A program made the translations under genes and the position numbers. Source: Candidatus Dojkabacteria bacterium (GTDB taxonomy: Bacteria; Patescibacteriota; Dojkabacteria; GCA-002793355). From it: DNA of 64,000 bases. The stretch spans positions 84,345 to 148,344 of the forward strand of contig CP129470.1 of NCBI GenBank assembly GCA_030583685.1. Reading direction: 5' to 3'. The notes under the pieces were generated by a model that searched no databases, was not told the DNA's origin, and was given only the letters and a program-made list of their open reading frames with translations. This document shows positions 34,177 through 45,810 of the stretch, piece by piece. Every line of letters starts with the position of its first letter. Position 1 is the first letter of the stretch.

Positions 34177-37100
34177 ATGTGGATTTTACTTGGCGTTATC
34201 CTGTTTCTTACATTTTTATACGCAGAAACGCCTGTTACCGCAGTATATTCCACCACACTCACGCTAACTGAAGATACCTACCTCGAAGAGAAATTTCCCG
34301 ATGTATCACCGTGGAATAATAGAAATTTATACCTCGGTACAGACTCCTGGTATGGCAAAGGAAAAACAAGAATTCTCTTGAAGCCAAACTTCTCACTATT
34401 AGCGATGCAACAAATTCTTCCAAACGATATTGAAAAAGTTGAGTTGCTGCTCACCAGTTACGCCTATCAAGGGACAAAAGCTGAAATTGTTATCGATAGT
34501 TACACCACAACCTCCCCATGGTCAATGTTTAGTGCGACCTGGAGTTCTCAACCCACAATAACGAGCAGTAAAAAGGACACCACGATCGTTTCAACGAACA
34601 ATTCTCGCAAAAGTATAACCGTGACAAACGCCTTTCTTGATGCCTACAGAAACTATCCCACTACTGAACGAGGAATTCAATTAAAAGTGAATGCTGAAAC
34701 AGAGAAGGCAATTATTTTTTGGGCACAAAATTGTGATGCGGCGCCAGAGCCTCCTCACTGCTCTGGCGCCGCGGACCATCCACTCTTCAAACTCACCATA
34801 AAACCTAATTCTCCCCCTTCTGTTTGTTCCTTCAAAACACCCGCTCCAAATGTTATCTCGAACAACTCAACGATTGCGTTTGAAGTCCAACCGAGCATCG
34901 ACCCAGACAATGATTCGCTCACCTATCATCTAAAAGTATGTCGAGATACCGCCTGCAACGAAGTCGTATTTGAACAGCAGGTTTCCACCAATTCTAAAAC
35001 TTATTATGACTTCCCAGATGATACGTATTATGTTTCCTGTCTCGCCTTTGATGGGCATGACAGCAATAACAGGTGGAGTAGTCCCCACTATATGACAGTT
35101 GATTCTATACCTCCTATTTCCCCAATTATCGTGCCAGAACCATCGTTTACAGGACAATTACGAAATGTGATTTCTTGGTCAAATTCGGACATTGATGCCA
35201 CATCTTTTCAAGTAGTAGCGAGTGAACGGCAAGATTTCAAATCCTACAATACTTATTCGCCTTGGATTCAAGATGTTTTTTACACTTTCGAGCATACAAA
35301 AGAAAAAACCTATTACTATAAAGTGAGAAGCCGAGACAAAGCGGGAAACGAATCGGAGTGGTCTCACCAGACCTCAACAACAATCGATGCGACCTTTCCT
35401 ACTATACGGTACTTTAGAACAAACAAAACCCTCCTCTCACCAAAAAAGGAGTCAAACGGATCACTTTCTGGGACAGCGTATCTTCAAGGAGGCATTGATG
35501 ATGCAAATATTGGCACCATTTCACTCTTCATCCGAGATCATACGATGAAAAAAGTCTACGAAACGACGGTAGACCAGAAGTCATATTTGTGGCTTCATTG
35601 GCCGGAAACAACATTGTATCCTGACGGAACGTATCTTGCTCAACTTACTGCTCATGACCTTCTTGGTAACGAAATACAAAGCGATATCATCTTTCTCGAG
35701 ATTGATACGACACCTCCTACAAAACCTCGCTATCTTGGCATTAGCAATACTCAAACGATAAAAAGCAATCGCATTTCATTTGAAGTGCGTTGCCAAAGCA
35801 ACGCACTCGCAACGGTGTACGTGAGTGGAAAAATTATCGCTCAACAGCAATCAAGACACCTCGTTTCACTTGAAAAAAAAGATGGATCATACACAACTAA
35901 GGCAACGTGTACCGATGTTGCAGGAAACAAAAGCGAAACATCACTCTCCTTTTCTATAGACACAACACCGCCAAGCACGCCAAGCATTACGTTTCTTCAT
36001 GATGAGAAAAAGAAACAGCTAACATTGCAGGTGTATTGCAGAGAAGACGGGGCTACTCAGTTTTACAAAAACGGTTTTGCTTTCCATGAAGTGTCCTGTC
36101 TCAAAGGAAAATATGCAACGACCCTAGAAAAAGAAGTTGCAGTTCCGTATACCGCTTCGTTTACCGCTCGTGTTCGTGACAAAGTAGGGAACTGGAGTGA
36201 TTTAGGAGAAAAAACGGTACTGCTGCGTGCGCCCAGTCTCCCTGCAGCCATAAAACCAACCATTGCCTGTAGTATCGTTTACCACAAAACGCAGCAAAAA
36301 TACTTACAAGAAGCATGTGCATTATCAGGAAGCTCTCTACTTTCGTATCAAAACACAATTCCCGTTGGAAAACACTATGTTTCAACAATAGAAGTGAATC
36401 ACCCAACGAAAGTGAGCGTCACTATTTCAATAGTGCATTGTCTTCCCAAGAGTTTTTGGGATCCACGAACTTGGTTTTCCTGTGTTGAAGAACCTTATGA
36501 GACAATTACTCAACGAGCGACAGCCACGCCTGTACTACACGCAGCAGAAGCAAACTCACTTTCATTAACCTCGGTTAGCCAGAAGGAAATTACTGCGACT
36601 CATGAAAAAACTGACTTGCTCCGCATTGCAACAAGATTTCTCGTCTCCTATTCCTTTGTCACGGGAAACACCTATTCCACACGATCAACACTCACGCAAA
36701 AACAAGTTGTAACACTTTCTCCACGATACACCCAACTGAGTTCGAAACAGTATTTCTCTTGGTTATTTTCTGGTCCTCGACAGGTAAGCCAATGGTACGG
36801 GAATACCGCATATCAAAAACCTCATGCGGGAATTGACTTTTCAGTTGCTCAAGAGAAAATACTCGCACCTGCGGAGGGAACAATTGTCAGTGCAACCTAC
36901 CATAAAGCATCATCGTGTTTTGCAGGAGGATACTATCTTGCAATAAAACATCCAAATGGCCTATACACCTATTATTTTCATCTCAAAAATATTCTGAAGC
37001 AAGATGGAAAAACAGCCTATAAACCTGGTAATACCATCAAGCGAGGGGCATTCCTAGCAACAAGCGGAAACTCAGGAATGTACAACTGCGAACCATTAGC

Positions 37101-37257
37101 AGCTCACCTGCATTTTGAGTTGCGCTCATCTCAAAAGACTACTTCCCACCTTAACCCAGTACCGTATTTCTCAGTTAACTGGAACACCATTGTTACTGCA
37201 AAAGCAAAGCAATATCCAGGACGCCTCACAGGGGAGAACCCTCATCCTCAATTTTAA
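34177..37257 (+). CDS. 1026-aa secreted multidomain protein with C-terminal M23 (lysostaphin-like) metallopeptidase domain
   Basis: Signal peptide 'MWILLGVILFLTFLYAETPVTA'. Long beta-rich N-terminal region (Ig/FN3-like segments; 'CDAAPEPPHCSGAADHP'). C-terminal M23 motifs 'HAGIDFSV' (HxxxD) and 'AAHLHFEL' (HxH). Confidence 0.7.
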   Translation: MWILLGVILFLTFLYAETPVTAVYSTTLTLTEDTYLEEKFPDVSPWNNRNLYLGTDSWYGKGKTRILLKPNFSLLAMQQILPNDIEKVELLLTSYAYQGTKAEIVIDSYTTTSPWSMFSATWSSQPTITSSKKDTTIVSTNNSRKSITVTNAFLDAYRNYPTTERGIQLKVNAETEKAIIFWAQNCDAAPEPPHCSGAADHPLFKLTIKPNSPPSVCSFKTPAPNVISNNSTIAFEVQPSIDPDNDSLTYHLKVCRDTACNEVVFEQQVSTNSKTYYDFPDDTYYVSCLAFDGHDSNNRWSSPHYMTVDSIPPISPIIVPEPSFTGQLRNVISWSNSDIDATSFQVVASERQDFKSYNTYSPWIQDVFYTFEHTKEKTYYYKVRSRDKAGNESEWSHQTSTTIDATFPTIRYFRTNKTLLSPKKESNGSLSGTAYLQGGIDDANIGTISLFIRDHTMKKVYETTVDQKSYLWLHWPETTLYPDGTYLAQLTAHDLLGNEIQSDIIFLEIDTTPPTKPRYLGISNTQTIKSNRISFEVRCQSNALATVYVSGKIIAQQQSRHLVSLEKKDGSYTTKATCTDVAGNKSETSLSFSIDTTPPSTPSITFLHDEKKKQLTLQVYCREDGATQFYKNGFAFHEVSCLKGKYATTLEKEVAVPYTASFTARVRDKVGNWSDLGEKTVLLRAPSLPAAIKPTIACSIVYHKTQQKYLQEACALSGSSLLSYQNTIPVGKHYVSTIEVNHPTKVSVTISIVHCLPKSFWDPRTWFSCVEEPYETITQRATATPVLHAAEANSLSLTSVSQKEITATHEKTDLLRIATRFLVSYSFVTGNTYSTRSTLTQKQVVTLSPRYTQLSSKQYFSWLFSGPRQVSQWYGNTAYQKPHAGIDFSVAQEKILAPAEGTIVSATYHKASSCFAGGYYLAIKHPNGLYTYYFHLKNILKQDGKTAYKPGNTIKRGAFLATSGNSGMYNCEPLAAHLHFELRSSQKTTSHLNPVPYFSVNWNTIVTAKAKQYPGRLTGENPHPQF

Positions 37258-37266
37258 ACTTATCTG

Positions 37267-38331
37267 ATGAATTCAATGACTAAATACGCTAAAAAAATTC
37301 TTCCTCCCGTTCTCCTTCTCGCACTCTATTTTTTGATTTATTTTGCGAGCTCCTTCCCTCAAGAAGATGTCACACAAAAGGACCTAGAAGCGGATATGCC
37401 GCTTATTTTCACAAGTTCCTGTGAGTACTCACATATTCCACTCCTTCTTACCGATACAGGTACAACAATCTGTGAATCATCAACAACCATATACCTCTAC
37501 ATACAAGGTGAGAAAGTCACGCTACTCAAAAAAGATACCAACACGCCAAGTTTTGTACCGAGTTCCCAACAATTACTCGTCGGTTTTAGAGAGAACGTCC
37601 TGCTTCTTTTTTCAGTCTCGACAACTAACACACTCACTGAGATATTCTCATTTGCCATGCCTCCAGAACAAACGCCTATCTCCCTATTCTTTACTCGTCA
37701 TCCCAAAACGGAAGAGAGAATAGTATACCTTTCAGCACAACAACTTGCGCAATCGCCAAGTGAGGTAAAATCGGTACAATATGAATTTACAATTTCCACA
37801 AAACACGAAATTGCGGTCAGGCAATTACGCTCAGTTGAGATGTTAAAAGTGGTCGCTGCATTTCCAGAATACCAAACCATCGTCATGACAGAATTATTTC
37901 CATTTCTTGCACAAAAAGTGTCACTTGTACAGTGGGGAGAAACCCCGCGCCTAACGCCACATCCCTGCACATCCACGGCTCGTCCTCTCCCTGCGGATGC
38001 TCCTTTATTCACGAGTGACGGCTGCCGCCTGCTCCCACATCAAAATTATCTCGAAATTTCGGCCTCTTCAGGACAACAAACAACGAGGCCCTTTAATGCT
38101 AACTTACTAATTTCGACCCACGATGGGGTCATTCAACGAAGCGAACAAGAGCAGCAACTCCTTTGGAAACCAAGTGATTCACCCCAGGAAACCGTCATTT
38201 TTCATAGAATTCCCGATAATCTGGTTCTATTCGGTCAATCCAGTACAAGAATTGGCAAAAGAGTGTATAATTGCTTTGACTTCACTGAGTCACCTGAGAT
38301 AACTTTGCGTATGTGTATACCGATACTATGA
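37267..38331 (+). CDS. Hypothetical secreted protein
   Basis: N-terminal signal peptide or anchor 'KKILPPVLLLALYFLIYFASSF'. No family recognised. 10 nt downstream of the M23 protein gene. Confidence 0.4.
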   Translation: MNSMTKYAKKILPPVLLLALYFLIYFASSFPQEDVTQKDLEADMPLIFTSSCEYSHIPLLLTDTGTTICESSTTIYLYIQGEKVTLLKKDTNTPSFVPSSQQLLVGFRENVLLLFSVSTTNTLTEIFSFAMPPEQTPISLFFTRHPKTEERIVYLSAQQLAQSPSEVKSVQYEFTISTKHEIAVRQLRSVEMLKVVAAFPEYQTIVMTELFPFLAQKVSLVQWGETPRLTPHPCTSTARPLPADAPLFTSDGCRLLPHQNYLEISASSGQQTTRPFNANLLISTHDGVIQRSEQEQQLLWKPSDSPQETVIFHRIPDNLVLFGQSSTRIGKRVYNCFDFTESPEITLRMCIPIL

Positions 38332-41285
38332 AACGTTTTTTTTCGAAATTATTTTCCCCTAATGAAAGGGAAGTTGCGAAAGCATGGAAGTTAGTTGAAA
38401 AAATTACTGCGCTTGAATCTTCAGTAGAGAAACTCTCAGACGCCGAATTGAAAGAGTCAACCAACTATTTTCGTAAGGAGTTAGGAATTGATATAGAGGA
38501 ACGTCGATCATCGGAAATTTACTACGACGTCAACTACCCGTTACTTGACAAAAAGCAACTTGAAACAGAAAGGGCAAAGCTCCTCTCCTTATTGCCAGAA
38601 ATTTATGCTCGCGTTCGAGAAGCTGCAAAAAGAGTCGCAAAACATAGGCATTTCGATGTACAGTTGATTACCGGTATTCTCTTGGCACAAGGGAAAATTA
38701 CAGAGGTTTTTACGGGAGAAGGAAAAACAAACTCCTCAATTCTACCAGTATATTTGTATTCACTTCTCGGGCATGGAGTTCATGTTGCAACCGTCAACGA
38801 TTATCTTGCAAAACGTGATGCTGAATGGGGAGGACAGGTGCTTATGGCACTTGGAGTAGAGTCAGCAGTTATTACTGGCGAAGGAAGCTACGAAATCATT
38901 TCCGACGAAGAAGTTGTGAAAACATACGGAGAGGATGCCAAAACGTCACTTGCAAAAAAAGACATGGCAAATATGTCTACCATGACGGGAACAAACCTTC
39001 GAAAGATTACTAAAAAAGATGCATATCTGAAAGATGTTGTGTATGGACAGGCGAGTGAATTTGGGTTTGACTATCTCCGAGACAACAGCGCGAAAGCATT
39101 AGAAGATCGCGTTCAGCGTCGGTTTGTCTTCGCAGTCGTTGACGAAGCCGACTCTATCCTGATCGACGAAGCTCGAACTCCATTAATCATTTCAGAACCT
39201 GATTCACAACCAAGCGACGTTTATGCTCGTTTTGCCACAATTGCAGCAGAGCTAATACCAGAAGAAGACTACACCGTTGATGAAAAACGACATGCTGTTG
39301 TACTGACTGACATGGGTATCAAAAAAGTTGAAGGAATGTTTGGAGAAGAAGACATCTGGAGTAATAGCATCTTCATACGACATATGGACAATGCGCTCAA
39401 AGCAAAGGCACTTTATCGATTAGATAAAGAATATATTGTTCACAATAACGAAGTACTCATTGTCGACCAATTTACTGGCCGAGTACAACCCGGAAGACGA
39501 TACAGTGAGGGACTTCATCAAGCAATTGAAGCCAAAGAGCGAGTTCCCATTAAACAGGAGAGCAAAACATTGGCTACAATCTCATACCAGAACTATTTCC
39601 GTATGTATTCCTACTTGTCGGGTATGACAGGAACTGCAATGACAGAAGCTGAAGAGTTCCAGAAAATTTATAAACTTGATGTTGTTCGTGTCCCAACCTA
39701 CAAAACAGTCATCAGGGATGATATGGCTGATCTTATCTACAAAAATGAAAAGTCAAAATTCGCTGCTGTTGTTGAAGAAATAAAAAAAATGCATGAAGTA
39801 GGGCGCCCTGTACTTGCTGGCACAACATCAATTGAAAAATCCGAATATCTCTCAAGCCTCCTGAAGAAGGAAGGAATTCCACACCAAGTGCTCAACGCGA
39901 AACTACACGAAAAAGAAGCGAAAGTCGTTGCACAGGCAGGACAAGAAAGAATGGTCACCATTGCCACCAACATGGCAGGTCGAGGGACTGATATTAAACT
40001 TCCAGAAAAGGTAAAGGAGCTTGGTGGACTACACATTATTGGGACAGAGCGCCATGAAGCTCGACGAATCGACAACCAACTTCGAGGACGTTCAGGTCGT
40101 TTGGGTGATCCAGGTTCTTCCAAGTTCTATCTTTCGCTCGAAGACCATTTGATGAGGGTGTTCGGTGGTGACATGATGAAAGCAATAATCGGAAATTCAC
40201 TTCCAGAAGGTGTTCCGCTTGAATCAAGAATGCTCACCAATATATTGGAAAAGGCGCAACAAAAAGTTGAATCCCTCAACTTCGATACACGAAGAAGATT
40301 AGTCGACTATGATGATGTTCTGAACCAGCAAAGAGAAATTGTCTATAAATTGCGAAAACTCATTCTCATTCAATTACACGTCGAAGAATACCCAGAATTA
40401 GTCCGTATCTCTATTCCTTCAGAGAAAACCCTCTCGTTTTTGAAAGCTTTGAGACAATTTACCTTGAAAAAACCAACCGATGCGAAACTTCGTGCATTTG
40501 TTTCAGGAAGCTTCATGGATTATTCCCTTAGATTGTGGGCTTTAAAACAAATTATTGTTCAGATTGAATCGACACTAGGGGAAATTACGACACTAGGAGT
40601 AAAAATGACACCGAAGCAGGCTGGATTACTGTTTGACTATCTCGACACCTGTATTCCAGACGAGATGCAAGAAGCAGCTGCAAAGCAATTTGGGTTTACC
40701 TCCTACGATTCTTTCAAAGAGACTTTGATTACCGTGAAAAAGAAATCTGCAGTGCTCCACGCAGATACACTCGTTAACTTACTCACAGAATCACTCTTTC
40801 TCGAGCTCGAGTCTCTACAAACAAATCTCCCAAATAAAGAATTTGAACGATACCTCATTATGTCTTCACTCGATTATTTGTGGATGGATCATATCGATGC
40901 AATGTCTGATCTACGAGAAGGTATTGGATTACGGGGCTACGCTCAGAGGGACCCATTAGTAGAGTACAAGAGAGAAGGGGTTATTCTTTTTGAAGAATTC
41001 TTTGCTGCACTTGGAGATATGGTTTCACGGAAAATGTACAGACTTCGCGTCAACGATAATAAAGACTCACTACCAGAAAATGCAGCAATGCGTCTTCCTA
41101 TTCCGAAACAAGGAAGAGCAGCAGTTAAAGATGCCGTTAATGCGGTGCTCAGTAACAGAATTGCACGACAGCAAGATATTGAATCTGCAAAGTCAAAGCT
41201 CCGAGTCGGCAGAAACGATCCATGTCCTTGCGGTAGTGGGAAAAAATACAAAAAATGCCATATGCAGGCCGATTTATCCCAATAA
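38328..41285 (+). CDS. secA: Preprotein translocase ATPase SecA
   Basis: Start at 'MKRFFSKLFSP' (ATGA overlap). DEAD-motor motifs ('TGEGKT', 'VVDEADSILIDEARTPLIIS', 'TNMAGRGTDI'). C-terminal zinc finger 'CPCGSGKKYKKCH'. Confidence 0.9.
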   Translation: MKRFFSKLFSPNEREVAKAWKLVEKITALESSVEKLSDAELKESTNYFRKELGIDIEERRSSEIYYDVNYPLLDKKQLETERAKLLSLLPEIYARVREAAKRVAKHRHFDVQLITGILLAQGKITEVFTGEGKTNSSILPVYLYSLLGHGVHVATVNDYLAKRDAEWGGQVLMALGVESAVITGEGSYEIISDEEVVKTYGEDAKTSLAKKDMANMSTMTGTNLRKITKKDAYLKDVVYGQASEFGFDYLRDNSAKALEDRVQRRFVFAVVDEADSILIDEARTPLIISEPDSQPSDVYARFATIAAELIPEEDYTVDEKRHAVVLTDMGIKKVEGMFGEEDIWSNSIFIRHMDNALKAKALYRLDKEYIVHNNEVLIVDQFTGRVQPGRRYSEGLHQAIEAKERVPIKQESKTLATISYQNYFRMYSYLSGMTGTAMTEAEEFQKIYKLDVVRVPTYKTVIRDDMADLIYKNEKSKFAAVVEEIKKMHEVGRPVLAGTTSIEKSEYLSSLLKKEGIPHQVLNAKLHEKEAKVVAQAGQERMVTIATNMAGRGTDIKLPEKVKELGGLHIIGTERHEARRIDNQLRGRSGRLGDPGSSKFYLSLEDHLMRVFGGDMMKAIIGNSLPEGVPLESRMLTNILEKAQQKVESLNFDTRRRLVDYDDVLNQQREIVYKLRKLILIQLHVEEYPELVRISIPSEKTLSFLKALRQFTLKKPTDAKLRAFVSGSFMDYSLRLWALKQIIVQIESTLGEITTLGVKMTPKQAGLLFDYLDTCIPDEMQEAAAKQFGFTSYDSFKETLITVKKKSAVLHADTLVNLLTESLFLELESLQTNLPNKEFERYLIMSSLDYLWMDHIDAMSDLREGIGLRGYAQRDPLVEYKREGVILFEEFFAALGDMVSRKMYRLRVNDNKDSLPENAAMRLPIPKQGRAAVKDAVNAVLSNRIARQQDIESAKSKLRVGRNDPCPCGSGKKYKKCHMQADLSQ

Positions 41286-41338
41286 GCATAACTCGCTGTT
41301 GAAATTCAGAAAAATATCGGCTTACTTGTATTATTGCA

Positions 41339-41367
41339 TTGACACACGAGACCCGATATGTTAAAAC
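41339..41367 (+). promoter_or_regulatory. Possible promoter (TTGACA-17-TAAAAC) upstream of the first surface-cassette gene
   Basis: Perfect -35 at 41339-41344. Weak -10 (final C). The gene start is 28 nt downstream. Confidence 0.25.
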
Positions 41368-41395
41368 TTTCCAGTAACTTTTTACTGCCAAATAT

Positions 41396-42418
41396 ATGAG
41401 TATGTTGACAAAATTATCTCCCGCCAAGTTTTCTCTCCTTGGGTTTTACTTGCTTGCCGTTCTCGTCTTTTTCTCGGCTTTACGGAGCGTCGAAGCAGCA
41501 GGAGTAGGAGTTACCATCTCTCCAGCAGCTCTAACCTCAGCAACAGATACTGATGTCACCTTTAGTTATGTTGCTTCAGCACAATATGCAAGCGGTAATA
41601 CGGTATCAATCACTGCTCCTGCGGGAGTAACCATTCTAAACTGTTCATCAGGCACAACAGATGCAGATGGAGATTCAACTCCCGATGGTTCCGGATCGGT
41701 GGGAGGCCAAACCTATACCTATACCTTCACTGCTTCAACGACGACAGCAACAACGACCGGTGTAGATTTTTGTATAAATCTCGAAGCAACAACAGGAAAC
41801 TACGGAATTACTTTTGTTGACAGTAAAACAGTATCCTCAAACAACGATTATGGTGCCGCGCTCATCTATGTTGGAAGTGCAAACGTCGTTACTGTTTCTG
41901 CAAACGTACAACCTGCCCTTGCCTTTGTCATTCGAAATTCTGATGATGATGGCAATACAAATACCTGCGCATTGGGCACATTAACACTGGTTGCCGTCAA
42001 CACCTGTTCCTATAGACTGAAAGTTACCACGAACTCAGGTTCAGGATTCACCATTCAAGTCGATACTGATGGTGATTTGAGACGTTCCGGATCGGGTGAT
42101 GTTGCAGACATCAATGATATTGACCTAGTGACAAACAACACACTTGTTACTGCAGGAACAGAAGGGTATGGAATTTCATTAAACGGTGGCTCAATCACTG
42201 GTGGTTCGGTTACAGAGTCCGGCGACTTCGCAACCGACGATACTCCATTACCAATTAGTACCCCAACAAACCTTCTCACCACAAACGGAACAAACAACCC
42301 AGGTACAACTGACACAACAAACACAGCCCTCGTGACTCACCGTGCAGCAATGGACGGTGACACTGCCACTGGTAACTACACGCAATTAGTTACCTACACT
42401 GTCTCCGCATCATTTTAA
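41396..42418 (+). CDS. Secreted Thr/Gly/Asp-rich beta protein, cassette copy A1
   Basis: Signal peptide 'LLGFYLLAVLVFFSALRSVEA'. Conserved blocks shared with A2 ('LRRSGSGDVAD', 'GNTNTCALGTLT', C-terminal 'TGNYTQLVTYTVSASF'). Confidence 0.5.
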   Translation: MSMLTKLSPAKFSLLGFYLLAVLVFFSALRSVEAAGVGVTISPAALTSATDTDVTFSYVASAQYASGNTVSITAPAGVTILNCSSGTTDADGDSTPDGSGSVGGQTYTYTFTASTTTATTTGVDFCINLEATTGNYGITFVDSKTVSSNNDYGAALIYVGSANVVTVSANVQPALAFVIRNSDDDGNTNTCALGTLTLVAVNTCSYRLKVTTNSGSGFTIQVDTDGDLRRSGSGDVADINDIDLVTNNTLVTAGTEGYGISLNGGSITGGSVTESGDFATDDTPLPISTPTNLLTTNGTNNPGTTDTTNTALVTHRAAMDGDTATGNYTQLVTYTVSASF

Positions 42419-42427
42419 AAAACAAGT

Positions 42428-43357
42428 ATGGCACGAGATTACGGTTACATTATCAGTCCCTCGCTTACACGGTATACATTTGAACCTGGTACTACCGTTC
42501 GCGGAAAGTTCACACTCACTAATTCTTTCGTCACCGATGCGCCAGAAGCTCAGACGTTTATCATTTCATATCGCTTTATCTTTCAAGAGCAAGGGAAAAA
42601 GAATATTTACGAAACAACCCCAAGCGGAAAAGGACAATACGATTTAACGCCATGGATTTCTTTGGGAAGAACAGAGGTTACACTTGGACAAAACGAAAGT
42701 GTCGATATTCCATACACAATTACAGTTCCCTCGAATCCCTTACCAGGTGGTAAATATGCCGCAATACTGATTCAAAAAAAATCCTCCGGTGGTACCCTAA
42801 CTTCGTCAGGTGCATCACTTGATGATCGCGTCGCGTATCAAATAATTGGGAAAGTTGCAGGAACAGAGAAGCGAGAAAGCGAGATTGTTTCATTCGGCAG
42901 CGACAAGTCAGTTTATTTTATGTGGCCAAATGAAGTAGTTACCTTTACTATCTCTGCTAAAAACAATGGGAATGTTGAATTCCTTCCGAGCGGAGATATT
43001 TTTGTACACCAAGGAGCAATCACTGGCGCAATTTGGAATGAAAACTTCAACCCTGAGCAATTGGTCATCCTTCCTGAAAATGCGAGAAGTTACTCCGTTT
43101 CTTGGGAGGCAAAAAAGGGTTTTTTTAGAACCGATAAAGAAGGGTTAACCATTAATCTTGACTATTTTAGAATCGGTAAATATCACGCAACCGCGAAAAT
43201 TGGTTATGACCAAAATAATAATCGAGTTGTTGCTGATAGAGTAGTTGATTTTTGGATTATCCCAATACCTTTACTTGTTGCGGTGCTCAGTTTAGTTGCT
43301 GCAGGAATTTTATTATCACTGGTCAAAAAATTGCTTACCAAAAAAAAGAAGAAATAA
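42428..43357 (+). CDS. Beta-rich protein with C-terminal TM anchor and poly-Lys tail, cassette copy B1
   Basis: No N-terminal signal peptide. 'IPYTITVPSNPLPGGKYAAILI' block. C-terminal 'FWIIPIPLLVAVLSLVAAGILLSLVKKLLTKKKKK'. Paralog of B2. Confidence 0.5.
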   Translation: MARDYGYIISPSLTRYTFEPGTTVRGKFTLTNSFVTDAPEAQTFIISYRFIFQEQGKKNIYETTPSGKGQYDLTPWISLGRTEVTLGQNESVDIPYTITVPSNPLPGGKYAAILIQKKSSGGTLTSSGASLDDRVAYQIIGKVAGTEKRESEIVSFGSDKSVYFMWPNEVVTFTISAKNNGNVEFLPSGDIFVHQGAITGAIWNENFNPEQLVILPENARSYSVSWEAKKGFFRTDKEGLTINLDYFRIGKYHATAKIGYDQNNNRVVADRVVDFWIIPIPLLVAVLSLVAAGILLSLVKKLLTKKKKK

Positions 43358-43362
43358 TTGCT

Positions 43363-44400
43363 ATGAAACTGCCTAAAAATCATACTTTTGCTAAACGATT
43401 GCTATTTAGTAGTATTGTTGCAGGATTTCTGTACTATACAATCTCACTCGTTTCTGCTGCAGGCACAGCGGTTACCCTTACTCCCGCTGCTTTAGCTGCA
43501 AACACTGGTACCGACGTACTCTTTACCTATATCAGTTCGGATGAATATCAGATGGGCGACTCTATAGAAATTGTTGCACCCGCAGGGGTTACCGTTACCA
43601 ATTGCGCTGCACCGACAACCGATGCAGATGGTGATACAACAACAGACGGAAGTTCACTTGTTGTTTCCCAAACCTACACCTATCTGTTTTCAGATGACAC
43701 AACCGATGCGACAACAACTGGGGTCAGCTTTTGTGTTAACTACGAAGCACCCACGGGAAATTACGCACTAACCTTTATTGATACAAAAGCAAATTCTGCA
43801 AACAACGACTTTGGTGGTGCATTACTCTACGTCGGTGATGCTAATGTCGTTGTTGTCTCCGCACAGGTACAGCCTATCCTGTCATTTACCATCAGAAATG
43901 CTGCTGATGACGGAAATACTAATAGCTGCCCCCTCGGTGTGTTGACACCTGCAGCAGTGAGCGAATGTTCGTACAGACTAAAAATTGGAACCAACTCTAG
44001 TTCTGGATATGTTGTCAGTATTAGCAGTGATGGAGATTTACGGCGTTCTGGATCTGGCGATGTTGCAGATTCAGAAGATATTGACCGTGTCACCGACGAA
44101 TCTGGCACAATCTCAGCGGGTACCGAGGCCTATGGACTTGCTCTCCTCGGAAATTCTACCAGTACCAGTACTCCCGTAACAGAAGGAACCGAAACCGGTT
44201 TTAACTTCAGCACTGACGATTCACCCATTCCAATAGAGGGAACTAATGGAACCAAGGTACTTTACACATCAACAACCATGAATGATCCGACCACGCTTTC
44301 ACATTCTGCACTGGTTACTCATAGAGCAACCGTTGATACAGGAACATTAACAGGAAATTATCAACACCTCGTCACCTACACCGTCATTGCAAACTTCTAA
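43363..44400 (+). CDS. Secreted Thr/Gly/Asp-rich beta protein, cassette copy A2
   Basis: Start placed at 'MKLPKNHTFAKRLLFSSIVAGFLYYTISLVSA' just after the B1 stop. Colinear with A1 over its whole length, ending 'TGNYQHLVTYTVIANF'. Confidence 0.5.
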   Translation: MKLPKNHTFAKRLLFSSIVAGFLYYTISLVSAAGTAVTLTPAALAANTGTDVLFTYISSDEYQMGDSIEIVAPAGVTVTNCAAPTTDADGDTTTDGSSLVVSQTYTYLFSDDTTDATTTGVSFCVNYEAPTGNYALTFIDTKANSANNDFGGALLYVGDANVVVVSAQVQPILSFTIRNAADDGNTNSCPLGVLTPAAVSECSYRLKIGTNSSSGYVVSISSDGDLRRSGSGDVADSEDIDRVTDESGTISAGTEAYGLALLGNSTSTSTPVTEGTETGFNFSTDDSPIPIEGTNGTKVLYTSTTMNDPTTLSHSALVTHRATVDTGTLTGNYQHLVTYTVIANF

Positions 44401-44401
44401 T

Positions 44402-45337
44402 ATGGCAGAATTGAGAGAGTACGGACATATAATCAATCCGATACTTACCAGACAAACTTTATCCCCAGGTTCAGTTATTTCAGGAAGTTTTAGTTACTCA
44501 AACTCGTTTGCCGATTCTGAAGTAACTGAGCTTACCATGAAAGTTGTGCCGCAATTTGTGTTCCAACAAGACGGCACCCCAACACTCTTTGAGACGACAC
44601 CAGGTGAGTTACTCAAATACGATATGAGCGACTGGATAACGGTGGCGCAAGATCGGGTTACGATAAAAAAGGGCGAAAGTATTACCATTTCCTACACCAT
44701 CACCGTGCCGCAGGATGCAAATCCAGGAGGTAAGTATGCAACCATCTTACTTGTACCTGACCAAATTCAGGAAGAGAGCACGCGGAACGAAGCAAAATTA
44801 AATGCTCAGGTAGGGTTCACGATACTTGGTTCAGTACCGGGTGAGGTATCGAGTAATAGTCAGATTCTCGATTTTACTGTTGATAAGCACATTTATTGGC
44901 TGTGGCCACAGGAGCGAATTTCCTTTACAACAACAGTTGCAAACACAGGAAATGTTGATTATTTGCCGAAAGGAAACATCTTTTTGCATTCAGGGGACAT
45001 TACCACTCCAATCGCTTCCCTGAGTATTAACAGTGAAAACCTTGTTGTTTTGCCAGAAAATGGTCGCACCTTTAAGAATTATTGGGAAAAAGATCCCGCT
45101 TTGTTCAAACTCACTGAGAACGGAGTATTCCTTAACACTGACTATTTCCGAATAGGGAAAATTACGGCAACCGCAAAAATTGGGTATGACGTCGAAGGAC
45201 AACGACTTATCGGTGAACGAGAGGTCTCTTTCTGGATATTGCCATTGCCTGTTATCGTTGCTATACTGATTCTGATTCTAGTAAGTTCTGTAGGAGCAAA
45301 AATATGGAAAAAGCGCAAAAACCAATTGCGAAAGTAG
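44402..45337 (+). CDS. Beta-rich protein with C-terminal TM anchor, cassette copy B2
   Basis: Start at 'MAELREYGHIINP' just after the A2 stop. 'ISYTITVPQDANPGGKYATILL'. C-terminal 'FWILPLPVIVAILILILVSSVGAKIWKKRKNQLRK'. Confidence 0.5.
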   Translation: MAELREYGHIINPILTRQTLSPGSVISGSFSYSNSFADSEVTELTMKVVPQFVFQQDGTPTLFETTPGELLKYDMSDWITVAQDRVTIKKGESITISYTITVPQDANPGGKYATILLVPDQIQEESTRNEAKLNAQVGFTILGSVPGEVSSNSQILDFTVDKHIYWLWPQERISFTTTVANTGNVDYLPKGNIFLHSGDITTPIASLSINSENLVVLPENGRTFKNYWEKDPALFKLTENGVFLNTDYFRIGKITATAKIGYDVEGQRLIGEREVSFWILPLPVIVAILILILVSSVGAKIWKKRKNQLRK

Positions 45338-45630
45338 GTGGTCAAAAAGAATACAGTGTTGTTAAAATGACTTGTGAGAACTGTGGTGAGGACGTCTATT
45401 ACGTCTTTGCCTGCACACATTGTGGTGAGTATCTTTCGTTTTCTGAAGCGACACCCATGACAAAAGAAGATTTGAAAAAATTACTCGAAGAAGATGGTAA
45501 AGAAGTCAAAGGTGACATTAAACCAATACTTGCGACAGGTGATGAATTTGATGATGTCGACGGAGATGTTGGATCATTAGAGGTTGAGGAAGTTGACGAT
45601 TTGTACTCAGGCCCATTCAATCCGCTATAA
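45304..45630 (+). CDS. Small zinc-ribbon protein with acidic C-terminal tail
   Basis: 'CENCGEDVYYVFACTHCGEYL' (CxxC-x10-CxxC), then 'DEFDDVDGDVGSLEVEEVDD'. The start may be the internal Met at 45367. Confidence 0.4.
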   Translation: MEKAQKPIAKVGGQKEYSVVKMTCENCGEDVYYVFACTHCGEYLSFSEATPMTKEDLKKLLEEDGKEVKGDIKPILATGDEFDDVDGDVGSLEVEEVDDLYSGPFNPL

Positions 45631-45733: not shown

Positions 45734-45810
45734 GGGAACATAGCTCAGCTGGTTAGAGCATTCCGTTCACATCGGAAAGGTCACAAGTTCGAATCTTGTT
45801 GTTCCCACCA
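45734..45810 (+). tRNA. tRNA-Val (anticodon CAC), CCA encoded
   Basis: Acceptor GGGAACA/TGTTCCC, D-arm GCTC-AGCTGGTT-AGAGC, anticodon stem TTCCG/CGGAA with loop TTCACAT, T-arm ACAAG-TTCGAAT-CTTGT, discriminator A, then CCA. Confidence 0.8.

Follow-up and report, generated by a model that had tools for sequence, protein, structure and literature searches.

Four consecutive genes annotated as 'hypothetical' in a Candidatus Dojkabacteria MAG probably encode a minimal donor-strand pilus module in duplicate. The module has no usher and would be of the Pam type found in CPR/Patescibacteria, homologous to Pam pili. The genes were analysed within a 64-kb stretch of this MAG, which we call the window. 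They form two pairs, A1-B1 and A2-B2, in which the A proteins are candidate pilins and the B proteins candidate membrane-anchored chaperones. A preliminary description of the sequence had taken the cluster for an undescribed envelope system. This no longer holds, because the CTD of the A proteins matches the Pam pilin model NF058581 and the Pam pilus of CPR bacteria has been described by cryo-EM (bioRxiv 10.64898/2026.03.03.709456). The earlier picture of a monoderm surface system with a secreted and a C-terminally anchored partner is retained, and among the forms considered at that time (adhesin, fibre or S-layer-like lattice) a fibre is the most likely.

Two gene pairs at a conserved locus

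The four genes lie exactly where they had been placed before, according to ORF calls (Table 1). Pairwise alignment gives 58% identity between A1 and A2 (319 aa, E 4e-105) and 42% identity between B1 and B2 (306 aa, E 7e-92), and all motif blocks quoted earlier as shared are seen in these alignments. The paralogy of both pairs is far beyond chance. The spacers A1-B1, B1-A2, and A2-B2 measure 9, 5, and 1 nt, within the previously given range of 1-10 nt.

The pairing extends beyond this genome. Of the related loci that were fetched, all but three B-only or end-of-contig fragments have an A gene beside a B gene. A2 orthologues were found in three related loci (L001, L010, and L011). All related loci with a named organism belong to Patescibacteria/CPR, and two further records say only 'bacterium'.

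The cluster is flanked by secA, which ends at position 41285 upstream of A1, and by genes for a Zn-ribbon protein (Zn108), tRNA-Val, Nudix, and DHODH. Its position had been regarded as island-like. However, five related genomes keep the order M23 peptidase - orf354 - SecA - A-B(-A-B) - Zn108, and the GC content of the locus is that of its flanks; a genomic island is therefore rejected.

Table 1 Features of the A/B cluster and its surroundings, in window positions
Feature	Position	Strand	Basis
Candidate sigma-70-like promoter, weak	41305..41334	+	110-nt secA-A1 spacer; 9/12 consensus matches
A1, putative Pam-type pilin paralogue 1, 340 aa, WKZ24120.1	41396..42418	+	ORF; AF2 model; NF058581 match; identity to A2
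A1 Sec signal peptide, aa 1-34	41396..41497	+	Hydrophobic 19-mers at aa 7-21; AF2 helix aa 9-28
A1 NTD, predicted nine-strand beta-sandwich	41498..41872	+	DSSP on AF2 model: nine strands, aa 39-159
A1 linker, aa 160-174, GSANVVTVSANVQPA, putative donor strand	41873..41917	+	Unpaired in monomer model; conservation
A1 CTD, Pam-pilin C-like putative acceptor domain	41918..42415	+	NF058581 match; invariant columns
B1, leaderless C-terminally anchored WxLIP/PapD-like two-domain protein, 309 aa, WKZ24121.1	42428..43357	+	ORF; AF2; Foldseek; profile
B1 disordered loop and next strand, aa 118-143, …SSGGTLTSSGASLDDRVAYQIIGKVA	42779..42856	+	AF2; EfmWxLIP1 alignment
B1 TM helix, aa ~276-299	43253..43324	+	Hydropathy; AF2 helix aa 280-308
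A2, putative Pam-type pilin paralogue 2, 345 aa, WKZ24122.1	43363..44400	+	ORF; NF058581 match; orthologues
B2, second leaderless anchored WxLIP/PapD-like protein, 311 aa, WKZ24123.1	44402..45337	+	B1 identity; PF06030; hydropathy
B2 TM, aa ~278-299	45233-45298		Hydropathy
Zn108, Cys4 zinc-ribbon protein with acidic C-terminus, 108 aa	45304..45630	+	ORF; weak Zn-ribbon Pfam matches only
tRNA-Val(CAC)	45734-45810		

A proteins as candidate pilins

The A proteins are secreted, Thr/Gly/Asp-rich, and Trp-free, as already recognized, with 15-18% Thr, 8-10% Gly, 7.5% Asp, four Cys, and a hydrophobic leader. Such leaders occur at the N-terminus of A1 and A2 and throughout the A family, and the family alignment shows a conserved 'AAG' directly behind them. 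The A1 leader is probably cleaved after VEA. The AF2 model of A1 (pLDDT 92) consists of the leader helix, a nine-strand NTD, an unpaired linker, and a beta CTD at aa 175-340, and the chain stops exactly at the final strand (…VTYTVSASF). Two Cys pairs are conserved, Cys83/Cys126 in the NTD (each Cys at least 90% conserved) and Cys191/Cys204 in the CTD (invariant).

The linker has a pLDDT of 94-97 although it is unpaired in the monomer model. Across 99 A sequences, the region of aa 151-174, comprising the last NTD strand and the linker, is the most conserved part of the protein, with a mean column conservation of 0.59 (NTD 0.36, CTD 0.49). Conservation within the linker follows a hydrophobic i/i+2 pattern (N163, V165, V167, A169, and V171; 99 sequences). 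Since the most conserved segment is a linker with a donor-strand-like pattern, we favor a filament over a monomer, and the A proteins may polymerize.

Comparison with the NCBIfam model NF058581, 'Pam pilus system pilin subunit' (CPR_Pam_pilin_C; 148 positions, curated cut-off 55 bits), links the A CTD to known pilins. The A1 CTD scores 25.3 bits (E 1.3e-5, model positions 2-148), A2 scores 34.5 bits over aa 186-345 (E 1.9e-8), and the A2 CTD alone scores 37.4 bits (E 2.6e-9) with an additional weak PamT match. All three scores are below the cut-off, and A1 and A2 cover model positions 2/3-148 of 148. In the A family, 29 of 35 close members and 76 of 99 in the wider set match this model (best E-value 7.5e-14) and essentially no other. 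Judged by sequence, the A CTD is significantly similar, at scores below the naming threshold, to the Pam pilin C-domain model and appears to be homologous to it. The A CTD profile found no match at E<=10 among PDB sequences.

In Candidatus Mycosynbacter amalyticus, the Pam pilus includes the pilins PamA and PamB (PDB 25PZ/25QA) and the proposed chaperones PamC (WP_260763277.1) and PamD (WP_260763284.1), represented in NCBIfam by NF058581 and NF058579. PamA and PamB have a nine-strand NTD, a linker, an Ig-like CTD, and two to three Cys pairs, and the donated linker and the CTD groove are the most conserved pilin parts (bioRxiv 10.64898/2026.03.03.709456). Compared by description, the A proteins resemble them in having a Sec leader, a predicted nine-strand NTD and Ig-like CTD, a highly conserved linker, and paired Cys, two conserved pairs in A versus two to three in PamA/PamB.

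B proteins as candidate chaperones and anchors

Hydropathy agrees with the earlier view of the B proteins: a signal peptide is missing, and the single TM segment near the C-terminus is followed by a basic tail, which is Lys/Arg-rich (KKLLTKKKKK in B1). The AF2 model of B1 (pLDDT 86.6) contains two Ig-like beta-sandwich domains, a disordered loop, and the TM helix. In Foldseek, its top match is 9i25_C, a WxLIP in complex with WxL; RbmA ranks next, ahead of the chaperone-usher chaperones CfaA, CsuC, and EcpB. The B family profile matches E. faecium WxLIP1 (EfmWxLIP1; 9i25_C and 9i1y_A) in the PDB with E 2.4e-9, and PF06030 (DUF916/PGBD) is matched by 9 of 19 B-family members (best E 1.5e-8), with scores of 21.5 bits for B2 (E 2.6e-4) and 15.3 bits for B1 against a gathering cut-off of 27.3. 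B is a distant relative of the DUF916/WxLIP (CscA-type) proteins. None of the NCBIfam Pam models matches the B family.

The disordered loop of B1 has a pLDDT below 50 at aa 120-133 and precedes a strand at aa 136-143; the segment aligns with the region of the hairpin loop in EfmWxLIP1. In WxLIP, this hairpin loop is predicted to enter the WxL partner and complete its beta-sandwich as an inserted strand (Hassan et al. 2023, PMC10599100). The loop and strand of B1 at aa 118-143 are thus a candidate for a donated strand, and B1 is a putative cognate chaperone and anchor of A1.

PamC and PamD have a PapD/FimC-like fold and a TM helix at the C-terminus, and their chaperone role is a proposal based on AlphaFold; a signal peptide is reported for all Pam components (bioRxiv 10.64898/2026.03.03.709456). 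By description, B shares with PamC and PamD the PapD/FimC-like two-domain fold (predicted for B), the C-terminal TM helix, and a gene in the pilin operon. Unlike PamC and PamD, B1 and B2 lack a signal peptide. No hydrophobic leader was found in B1, B2, or about 30 orthologous clusters, whose B proteins start with MA[RK]DYGYIISPS… or MAE[LI]RDYGHI.NP…. Upstream in-frame stops rule out longer B ORFs, and NCBI calls identical starts. Distant B homologues do have signal peptides. A signal peptide is reported for PamC, PamD, and all WxLIPs, and its absence from B1 and B2 speaks against the Pam-type reading, in which the B ectodomain would have to reach the pilins.

Proposed filament assembly and alternative readings

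In the Pam-type reading, A1 and A2 would be pilins that are exported by Sec and then lose their leaders. B1 and B2 would be their cognate two-domain Ig-like chaperones, anchored by a C-terminal helix in the cytoplasmic membrane. The strand of the flexible B loop (aa ~118-143) may transiently complete the pilin CTD, until donor-strand exchange replaces it with the linker of the following pilin. The product would be a linear bead-like filament whose base is tethered to the membrane via B. The two pairs may supply two kinds of pilin, which would build separate filaments or follow one another along a single one, and a likely use of the filament would be to reach a host cell or attach to it.

The cluster shares with Pam a CPR host, two pilin types per operon, and the lack of an usher or other envelope-spanning machine. 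It differs in its minimal layout of two pilin-chaperone pairs, with no PamT-like tip, PamE, or PamR-like terminator of the A/B family within the 64-kb window, and in its context of secA and housekeeping genes rather than the ATP synthase, CorB, or MFS genes of Pam. The class Dojkabacteria is not named, and the WxLIP link of B is not mentioned, in bioRxiv 10.64898/2026.03.03.709456.

Several of these features would also fit a static WxL-cluster-like surface complex, in which B holds and stabilizes monomeric A by strand complementation, as proposed for Firmicutes Csc/WxL, and no polymerization takes place. EfmWxLIP1, including its WxL-bound entry, is the nearest solved relative of B in both sequence and fold, A and B genes are paired one to one, and tip and terminator genes are absent from the window. 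Other CPR genomes encode large proteins of 850-2500 aa with the A module at the C-terminus, besides small ones of ~340 aa, a size split also seen among WxL proteins. B resembles the WxLIPs of Csc clusters in Lactobacillales/Bacillales (DUF916-DUF3324-TM) in its two Ig domains, C-terminal TM, DUF916-domain sequence homology, best structural match, and equivalent disordered loop, and is paired genetically with secreted partners whose final strand reads G-x-Y…T-[YW]-x-[LV]. The host, however, is a CPR bacterium and not a member of the Firmicutes, and the A partner has no recognizable WxL domain or Trp-x-Leu motifs: Pfam WxL gives no match at E<=10 in any of 35 A members, A1 and A2 lack Trp, the A CTD profile has no PDB sequence match, and the similarity of the A CTD is to the Pam pilin model instead. 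B, in addition to lacking the signal peptide, shows no match to PF11797/DUF3324 in B1, B2, or the 19-member B family, and the motif NQIDKxxxYFDLK is replaced by an N-terminal strand, YGYIISPSLTRYTFEPG. A canonical WxL cluster is therefore rejected, and of the WxL/DUF916-DUF3324 likeness proposed earlier, the part concerning B and the WxLIPs is upheld, while the DUF3324 part and a sequence likeness of A to WxL proteins are not. The conserved donor-strand-like linker between the A domains, which a monomer would not need, suggests polymerization. We consider a static complex unlikely.

Another reading keeps the A filament and gives B a different task. B would be a PamR-like membrane anchor or terminator built of RbmA-like tandem FnIII domains and would close off the last pilin with its conserved N-terminal strand, and A would self-assemble without a chaperone. 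PamR is reported to resemble RbmA and to have both a C-terminal TM helix and an additional strand at the N-terminus (bioRxiv 10.64898/2026.03.03.709456). RbmA (4kkp, E 6e-9) is among the top Foldseek matches of B, and the N-terminus of B (MARDYGYIISPSL) is extremely conserved. These points are outweighed by the Foldseek TMt values, which are higher for WxLIP and chaperone-usher chaperones (0.42-0.57) than for RbmA (0.33-0.34), by the profile homology of B to WxLIP, and by the B-type genes being the sole partner at every locus. In donor-strand systems, incomplete Ig-like subunits normally need a chaperone, as is established for chaperone-usher pili. We consider this reading of B very unlikely.

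That A and B are unrelated Ig-like surface proteins (S-layer, TasA-like fibre, or sortase-type adhesin) with a superficial likeness to pilins is scarcely credible, as there is no LPXTG motif, in line with the preliminary description, and no sortase, A matches no camelysin/TasA or S-layer family of Pfam, and the specific and repeated NF058581 matches together with the obligatory B partner point to the Pam type. The likeness to TasA suggested previously is likewise given up for A: no sequence relationship was detected with TasA, archaeal bundling pili, or TasA-like (TLP) fibres, which have another domain architecture and no dedicated anchored chaperone.

As a Pam-type pilus, the A/B system would share donor-strand complementation and exchange with chaperone-usher pili (Pap, Fim, and Csu pilins). 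With its predicted PapD-like two-domain fold, B resembles their chaperones (PapD/FimC, CfaA, CsuC, and EcpB), of which CfaA, CsuC, and EcpB are Foldseek matches, and the pilins of both end exactly at the last strand. No sequence similarity between the two was detected. The A/B system differs in lacking an outer membrane and an usher (no large beta-barrel ORF is present in the cluster), in anchoring the chaperone in the membrane, in the additional pilin NTD, and in the putative donor strand, which is an internal linker and not an N-terminal extension.

A consensus scan placed the candidate promoter upstream of A1; the total of sigma-70-like sites in the region is not above shuffled expectation. 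Downstream, the Zn108 ORF is co-oriented with B2 and overlaps it by 34 nt. Zn108 is possibly associated with the A/B genes, as it is 80-87% identical in the five relatives and always lies directly 3' of the last B gene.

Gene order and genomic setting

The cluster consists of two gene pairs, A1-B1 and A2-B2, in which the A genes encode secreted proteins and the B genes encode C-terminally anchored proteins that we refer to as helpers. The four co-oriented ORFs lie exactly where the preliminary description had placed them, and the paralogy it proposed was borne out by pairwise alignment (58% identity, E 4e-105, for A1 and A2; 42% identity, E 7e-92, for B1 and B2). The spacers within A1-B1-A2-B2 are 9, 5 and 1 nt, and A1 begins 110 nt after the end of secA. 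The cluster genes are deposited in GenBank as WKZ24120.1 to WKZ24124.1, each annotated as 'hypothetical protein'. Profile HMMs of A and B, run against all ORFs of the window, detected no further family members. We note that WKZ24120.1 starts A1 at the second Met (MSM…, 338 aa), and the first ATG (41396) gives 340 aa; the choice is functionally irrelevant, as both Met positions fall within the leader.

Features of the A/B cluster and its downstream flank (positions in the window)
Feature	Position	Orientation	Remark
A1	41396-42418	co-oriented with B1, A2, B2	ORF
B1	42428-43357	co-oriented with A1, A2, B2	ORF
A2	43363-44400	co-oriented with A1, B1, B2	ORF
B2	44402-45337	co-oriented with A1, B1, A2	ORF
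Zn108	45304-45630		Cys4 zinc-ribbon/acidic protein, 108 aa; 34-nt overlap with B2
tRNA-Val(CAC)	45734-45810		

The neighbours are housekeeping genes (TrmD, SecA, Nudix, DHODH, ABC-F, ArgRS) and a 1026-aa M23 peptidase with Big_13/CBM96 domains. In five related genomes, whose SecA is 76-83% identical to that of the window, the order M23 - orf354 - SecA - A1-B1 - (A2-B2) - Zn108 is kept in all five, where orf354 is a 354-aa membrane protein. Three of these genomes carry the A2-B2 pair and two lack it, and one of the five has two extra A copies. GC content is flat across A1-B2. The gene order and pair distribution in the relatives, together with the uniform GC content, indicate that the duplication is old and that the locus is core-chromosomal, and the island-like position previously suggested is rejected.

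The secreted M23 peptidase, whose further domains are Big_13 and CBM96-like, and orf354 occupy 34177-38331, before secA, and accompany the A/B genes in conserved order in each of the five close relatives. No family match was found for orf354, which overlaps the GTG start of secA by 19 nt. Zn108 is 80-87% identical across the five relatives, a conservation at least equal to that of SecA, and always lies directly 3' of the final B gene; it was not found beside the A-B modules of more distant loci.

The A proteins and Pam pilins

Troman et al. (bioRxiv 10.64898/2026.03.03.709456) reported cryo-EM structures of PamA and PamB, the pilins of the Pam pilus system of CPR bacteria, from Ca. Mycosynbacter amalyticus. 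In both pilins, a signal peptide precedes a nine-strand beta-sandwich N-terminal domain (NTD), which one linker strand joins to an open Ig-like C-terminal domain (CTD); the CTD accepts the linker of a neighbour by donor-strand exchange. Their cysteines are paired, and conservation peaks in the linker and the groove.

A1 and A2 have a hydrophobic leader and four Cys, lack Trp and are rich in Thr, Gly and Asp. B1 and B2 have no N-terminal hydrophobic segment and end in one transmembrane (TM) helix and, beyond it, a tail rich in Lys and Arg. Both agree with the composition and topology read earlier. The AF2 model of A1 (pLDDT 92) contains a leader helix, exactly nine strands within residues 39-159, an unpaired yet confident segment at residues 160-174, and a beta CTD. 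In a 99-sequence A alignment, conservation is highest at residues 151-174 (0.59, against 0.49 for the CTD and 0.36 for the NTD), and every second position is conserved from N163 through V165, V167, A169 and V171 to L175, F177 and I179. The family has two conserved Cys pairs, and all its proteins terminate exactly at the last strand.

The sole specific match of A in NCBIfam (June 2026 release) is NF058581, 'CPR_Pam_pilin_C, Pam pilus system pilin subunit', for which the curated cut-off is 55 bits. A2 matches this model with E 1.9e-8, and the CTDs of A2 and A1 alone match with E 2.6e-9 and 1.3e-5, respectively, covering it from end to end, both below the cut-off. The model is matched by 29 of 35 close and 76 of 99 wider A-family members (best E 7.5e-14), all under 55 bits. 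No PDB sequence matched the A profile or the linker-plus-CTD profile, and structure searches with the full-length A1 model gave generic Ig-like matches only. In our interpretation, A1 and A2 belong to a divergent branch of the Pam-type pilin family. The cluster had been put forward as an undescribed envelope system, which does not hold, as the A CTD matches NF058581 and Pam pili have been described.

For CPR/Patescibacteria, which rely on direct physical contact with a host, most surface appendages lack annotation. A word-indexed search returned 44 relatives of A, and a full HMMER profile search returned at least 855 representatives, defined as clusters at 50% identity, at E<=1e-3, with 242 at E<=1e-30. 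Since this family falls slightly short of the new NCBIfam threshold, a considerable fraction of Pam-type pilus loci is probably missed. Many of the profile matches are long proteins (850-2500 aa) in which the whole A module lies C-terminally; they parallel the 'large WxL proteins' and suggest adhesin-bearing pilus subunits. About 40 of the best 150 representatives are 470-2500 aa long, mostly >=850 aa (including P0070, P0077 and P0094), and end in the complete NTD-linker-CTD module. The window contains no such long protein.

The helpers and a putative assembly mechanism

B is demonstrably a relative of the WxL-interacting protein (WxLIP), which has the architecture DUF916-DUF3324-TM (Hassan et al. 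2023, PMC10599100). The B-family profile matches E. faecium WxLIP1 (PDB 9i25_C, 9i1y_A) with E 2.4e-9, and PF06030 (DUF916/WxLIP_PGBD) matches 9 of 19 B-family members, with B1 and B2 themselves sub-threshold. The AF2 model of B1 (pLDDT 86.6) comprises a pair of beta-sandwich domains, a loop that is disordered over residues 120-133 and leads into a strand, and a helix at the C-terminus. Its top Foldseek hit is 'WxLIP bound to long WxL', below which come RbmA and then the chaperone-usher chaperones CfaA, CsuC and EcpB. The likeness to WxL complexes in the preliminary description therefore stands for B and is not borne out at sequence level for A, as the A family has no Pfam match, WxL domain included.

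A adjoins B in nearly all related loci examined, the exceptions being three B-only or end-of-contig fragments, and this adjacency holds even at loci with merely marginal A similarity. At one of these (L006, GCA_964637855.1, 5791-12498), a marginal A-like protein (E 1.8e-10) adjoins a B-like protein that matches PF06030 and carries two C-terminal TM segments; beyond this pair lie dockerin- and cohesin-domain proteins and one protein of >6500 aa. On the contig of a true WxLIP (P0256), the neighbouring gene does not encode a WxL protein.

Troman et al. liken PamC and PamD to PapD/FimC and PamR to RbmA, and describe a TM helix in all three, C-terminal in PamC and PamD. B fits the chaperone slot of such a system. 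We consider it likely that A and B are the pilins and chaperones of an usher-less donor-strand pilus. From the homology and architecture established here, we infer the following steps for this locus. A would be exported by Sec, and membrane-anchored B would cap the incomplete A CTD with the strand that follows its flexible loop. The linker of an incoming A would then displace the B strand, stringing the two-domain subunits like beads into a linear filament whose base B would tether. The two pilin/chaperone pairs may account for two kinds of filament or for two zones within one, as reported for PamA/PamB by Troman et al., who also showed polymerisation of the homologues. The unstructured hairpin loop of WxLIP is predicted to turn into a strand and thereby complete the beta-sandwich of WxL (Hassan et al. 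2023), which is in effect donor-strand complementation.

A static WxL-like surface complex would also accommodate the WxLIP kinship of B; with a Pam-type CTD in A, and with no WxL domain, DUF3324 or NQIDK motif to make this a canonical WxL cluster, we regard it as unlikely. That B serves as a PamR-like anchor only, a reading that its RbmA hit would favour, is less probable still. The idea that A and B are unrelated Ig-like surface proteins is highly improbable beside the NF058581 matches and the constant B partner. A chaperone-usher system was rejected, as there is neither an usher nor an outer membrane.

For the donor-strand pilus that we favour, the Pam pilus is the closest known system, with several differences. 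A scores under the family-model cut-off, and the cluster is a minimal pilin-chaperone unit present twice, PamT, PamE and PamR of this family not being found in the 64-kb window. Its genomic neighbourhood differs, its helpers are leaderless, and its host class, Dojkabacteria, is not named in the Pam preprint, which mentions neither WxL nor DUF916. With its Pam-type pilin and WxLIP-type helper side by side, the cluster connects this newly solved CPR filament to the enigmatic WxL clusters of lactobacilli, enterococci and Listeria, and offers both a common mechanistic frame, in which an anchored chaperone supplies the complementing strand.

Leaderless helpers

B1, B2 and about 30 orthologous clusters at 90% identity start with MA[RK]DYGYIISPS… or MAE[LI]RDYGHI.NP…, and the leader is absent; NCBI calls the same starts for B1 and B2. 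More distant homologues have a leader of 25-45 residues ahead of the same strand. Longer B ORFs are excluded by in-frame stops upstream, as stop-to-stop ORFs extend only 3 codons (B1) or 17 non-hydrophobic codons (B2). At 42416-42430, A1 and B1 share a reading frame, with the A1 TAA and three sense codons (9 nt in total) preceding the B1 ATG. This layout recurs in four of the five relatives (L001, L011, L012 and L013), that is, in five of six genomes counting the window, and the A2/B2 frames vary. A hidden leader or recoding was rejected on the upstream stops, the inconsistent A/B frame relation and the stop being TAA, and the in-frame layout is probably inherited operon compaction, not readthrough.

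The TM helix and poly-Lys tail of B predict an N-out topology, like that of the leader-bearing homologues. From Sec/YidC biology, we know of no bacterial route that exports an N-terminal domain of ~275 residues without a leader. Leaders were reported on all proteins in the Pam and WxLIP studies (bioRxiv 10.64898/2026.03.03.709456; PMC10599100). Leaderless B is at odds with these proteins and poses a testable question of export and membrane topology.

That the A/B module unites a Pam-type pilin domain and an anchored protein of WxLIP type would imply a broader reading, which we offer tentatively as a possibility. CPR Pam pili and Firmicutes WxL/Csc clusters may form one ancient superfamily of usher-less donor-strand systems with membrane-anchored chaperones in monoderm cells. 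The Dojkabacteria-related helper may have lost its signal peptide and kept an N-out-type anchor (TM helix and poly-Lys tail). In that case, either its N-terminal ectodomain would be exported along a route, as yet undescribed, that needs no leader (for instance a reverse signal-anchor), or the helper would have moved to the cytoplasmic face with a new action.

Leader-bearing and leaderless B occur together in some operons. A more distant operon, at L002 (7225-12922) and L016, encodes a 559-aa secreted protein, two A, a leader-bearing B and a leaderless B; therefore, both kinds of helper coexist in one locus. The 559-aa protein ends in …ITFSAIGSF, an A-like last strand, and is possibly a tip or adhesin subunit.
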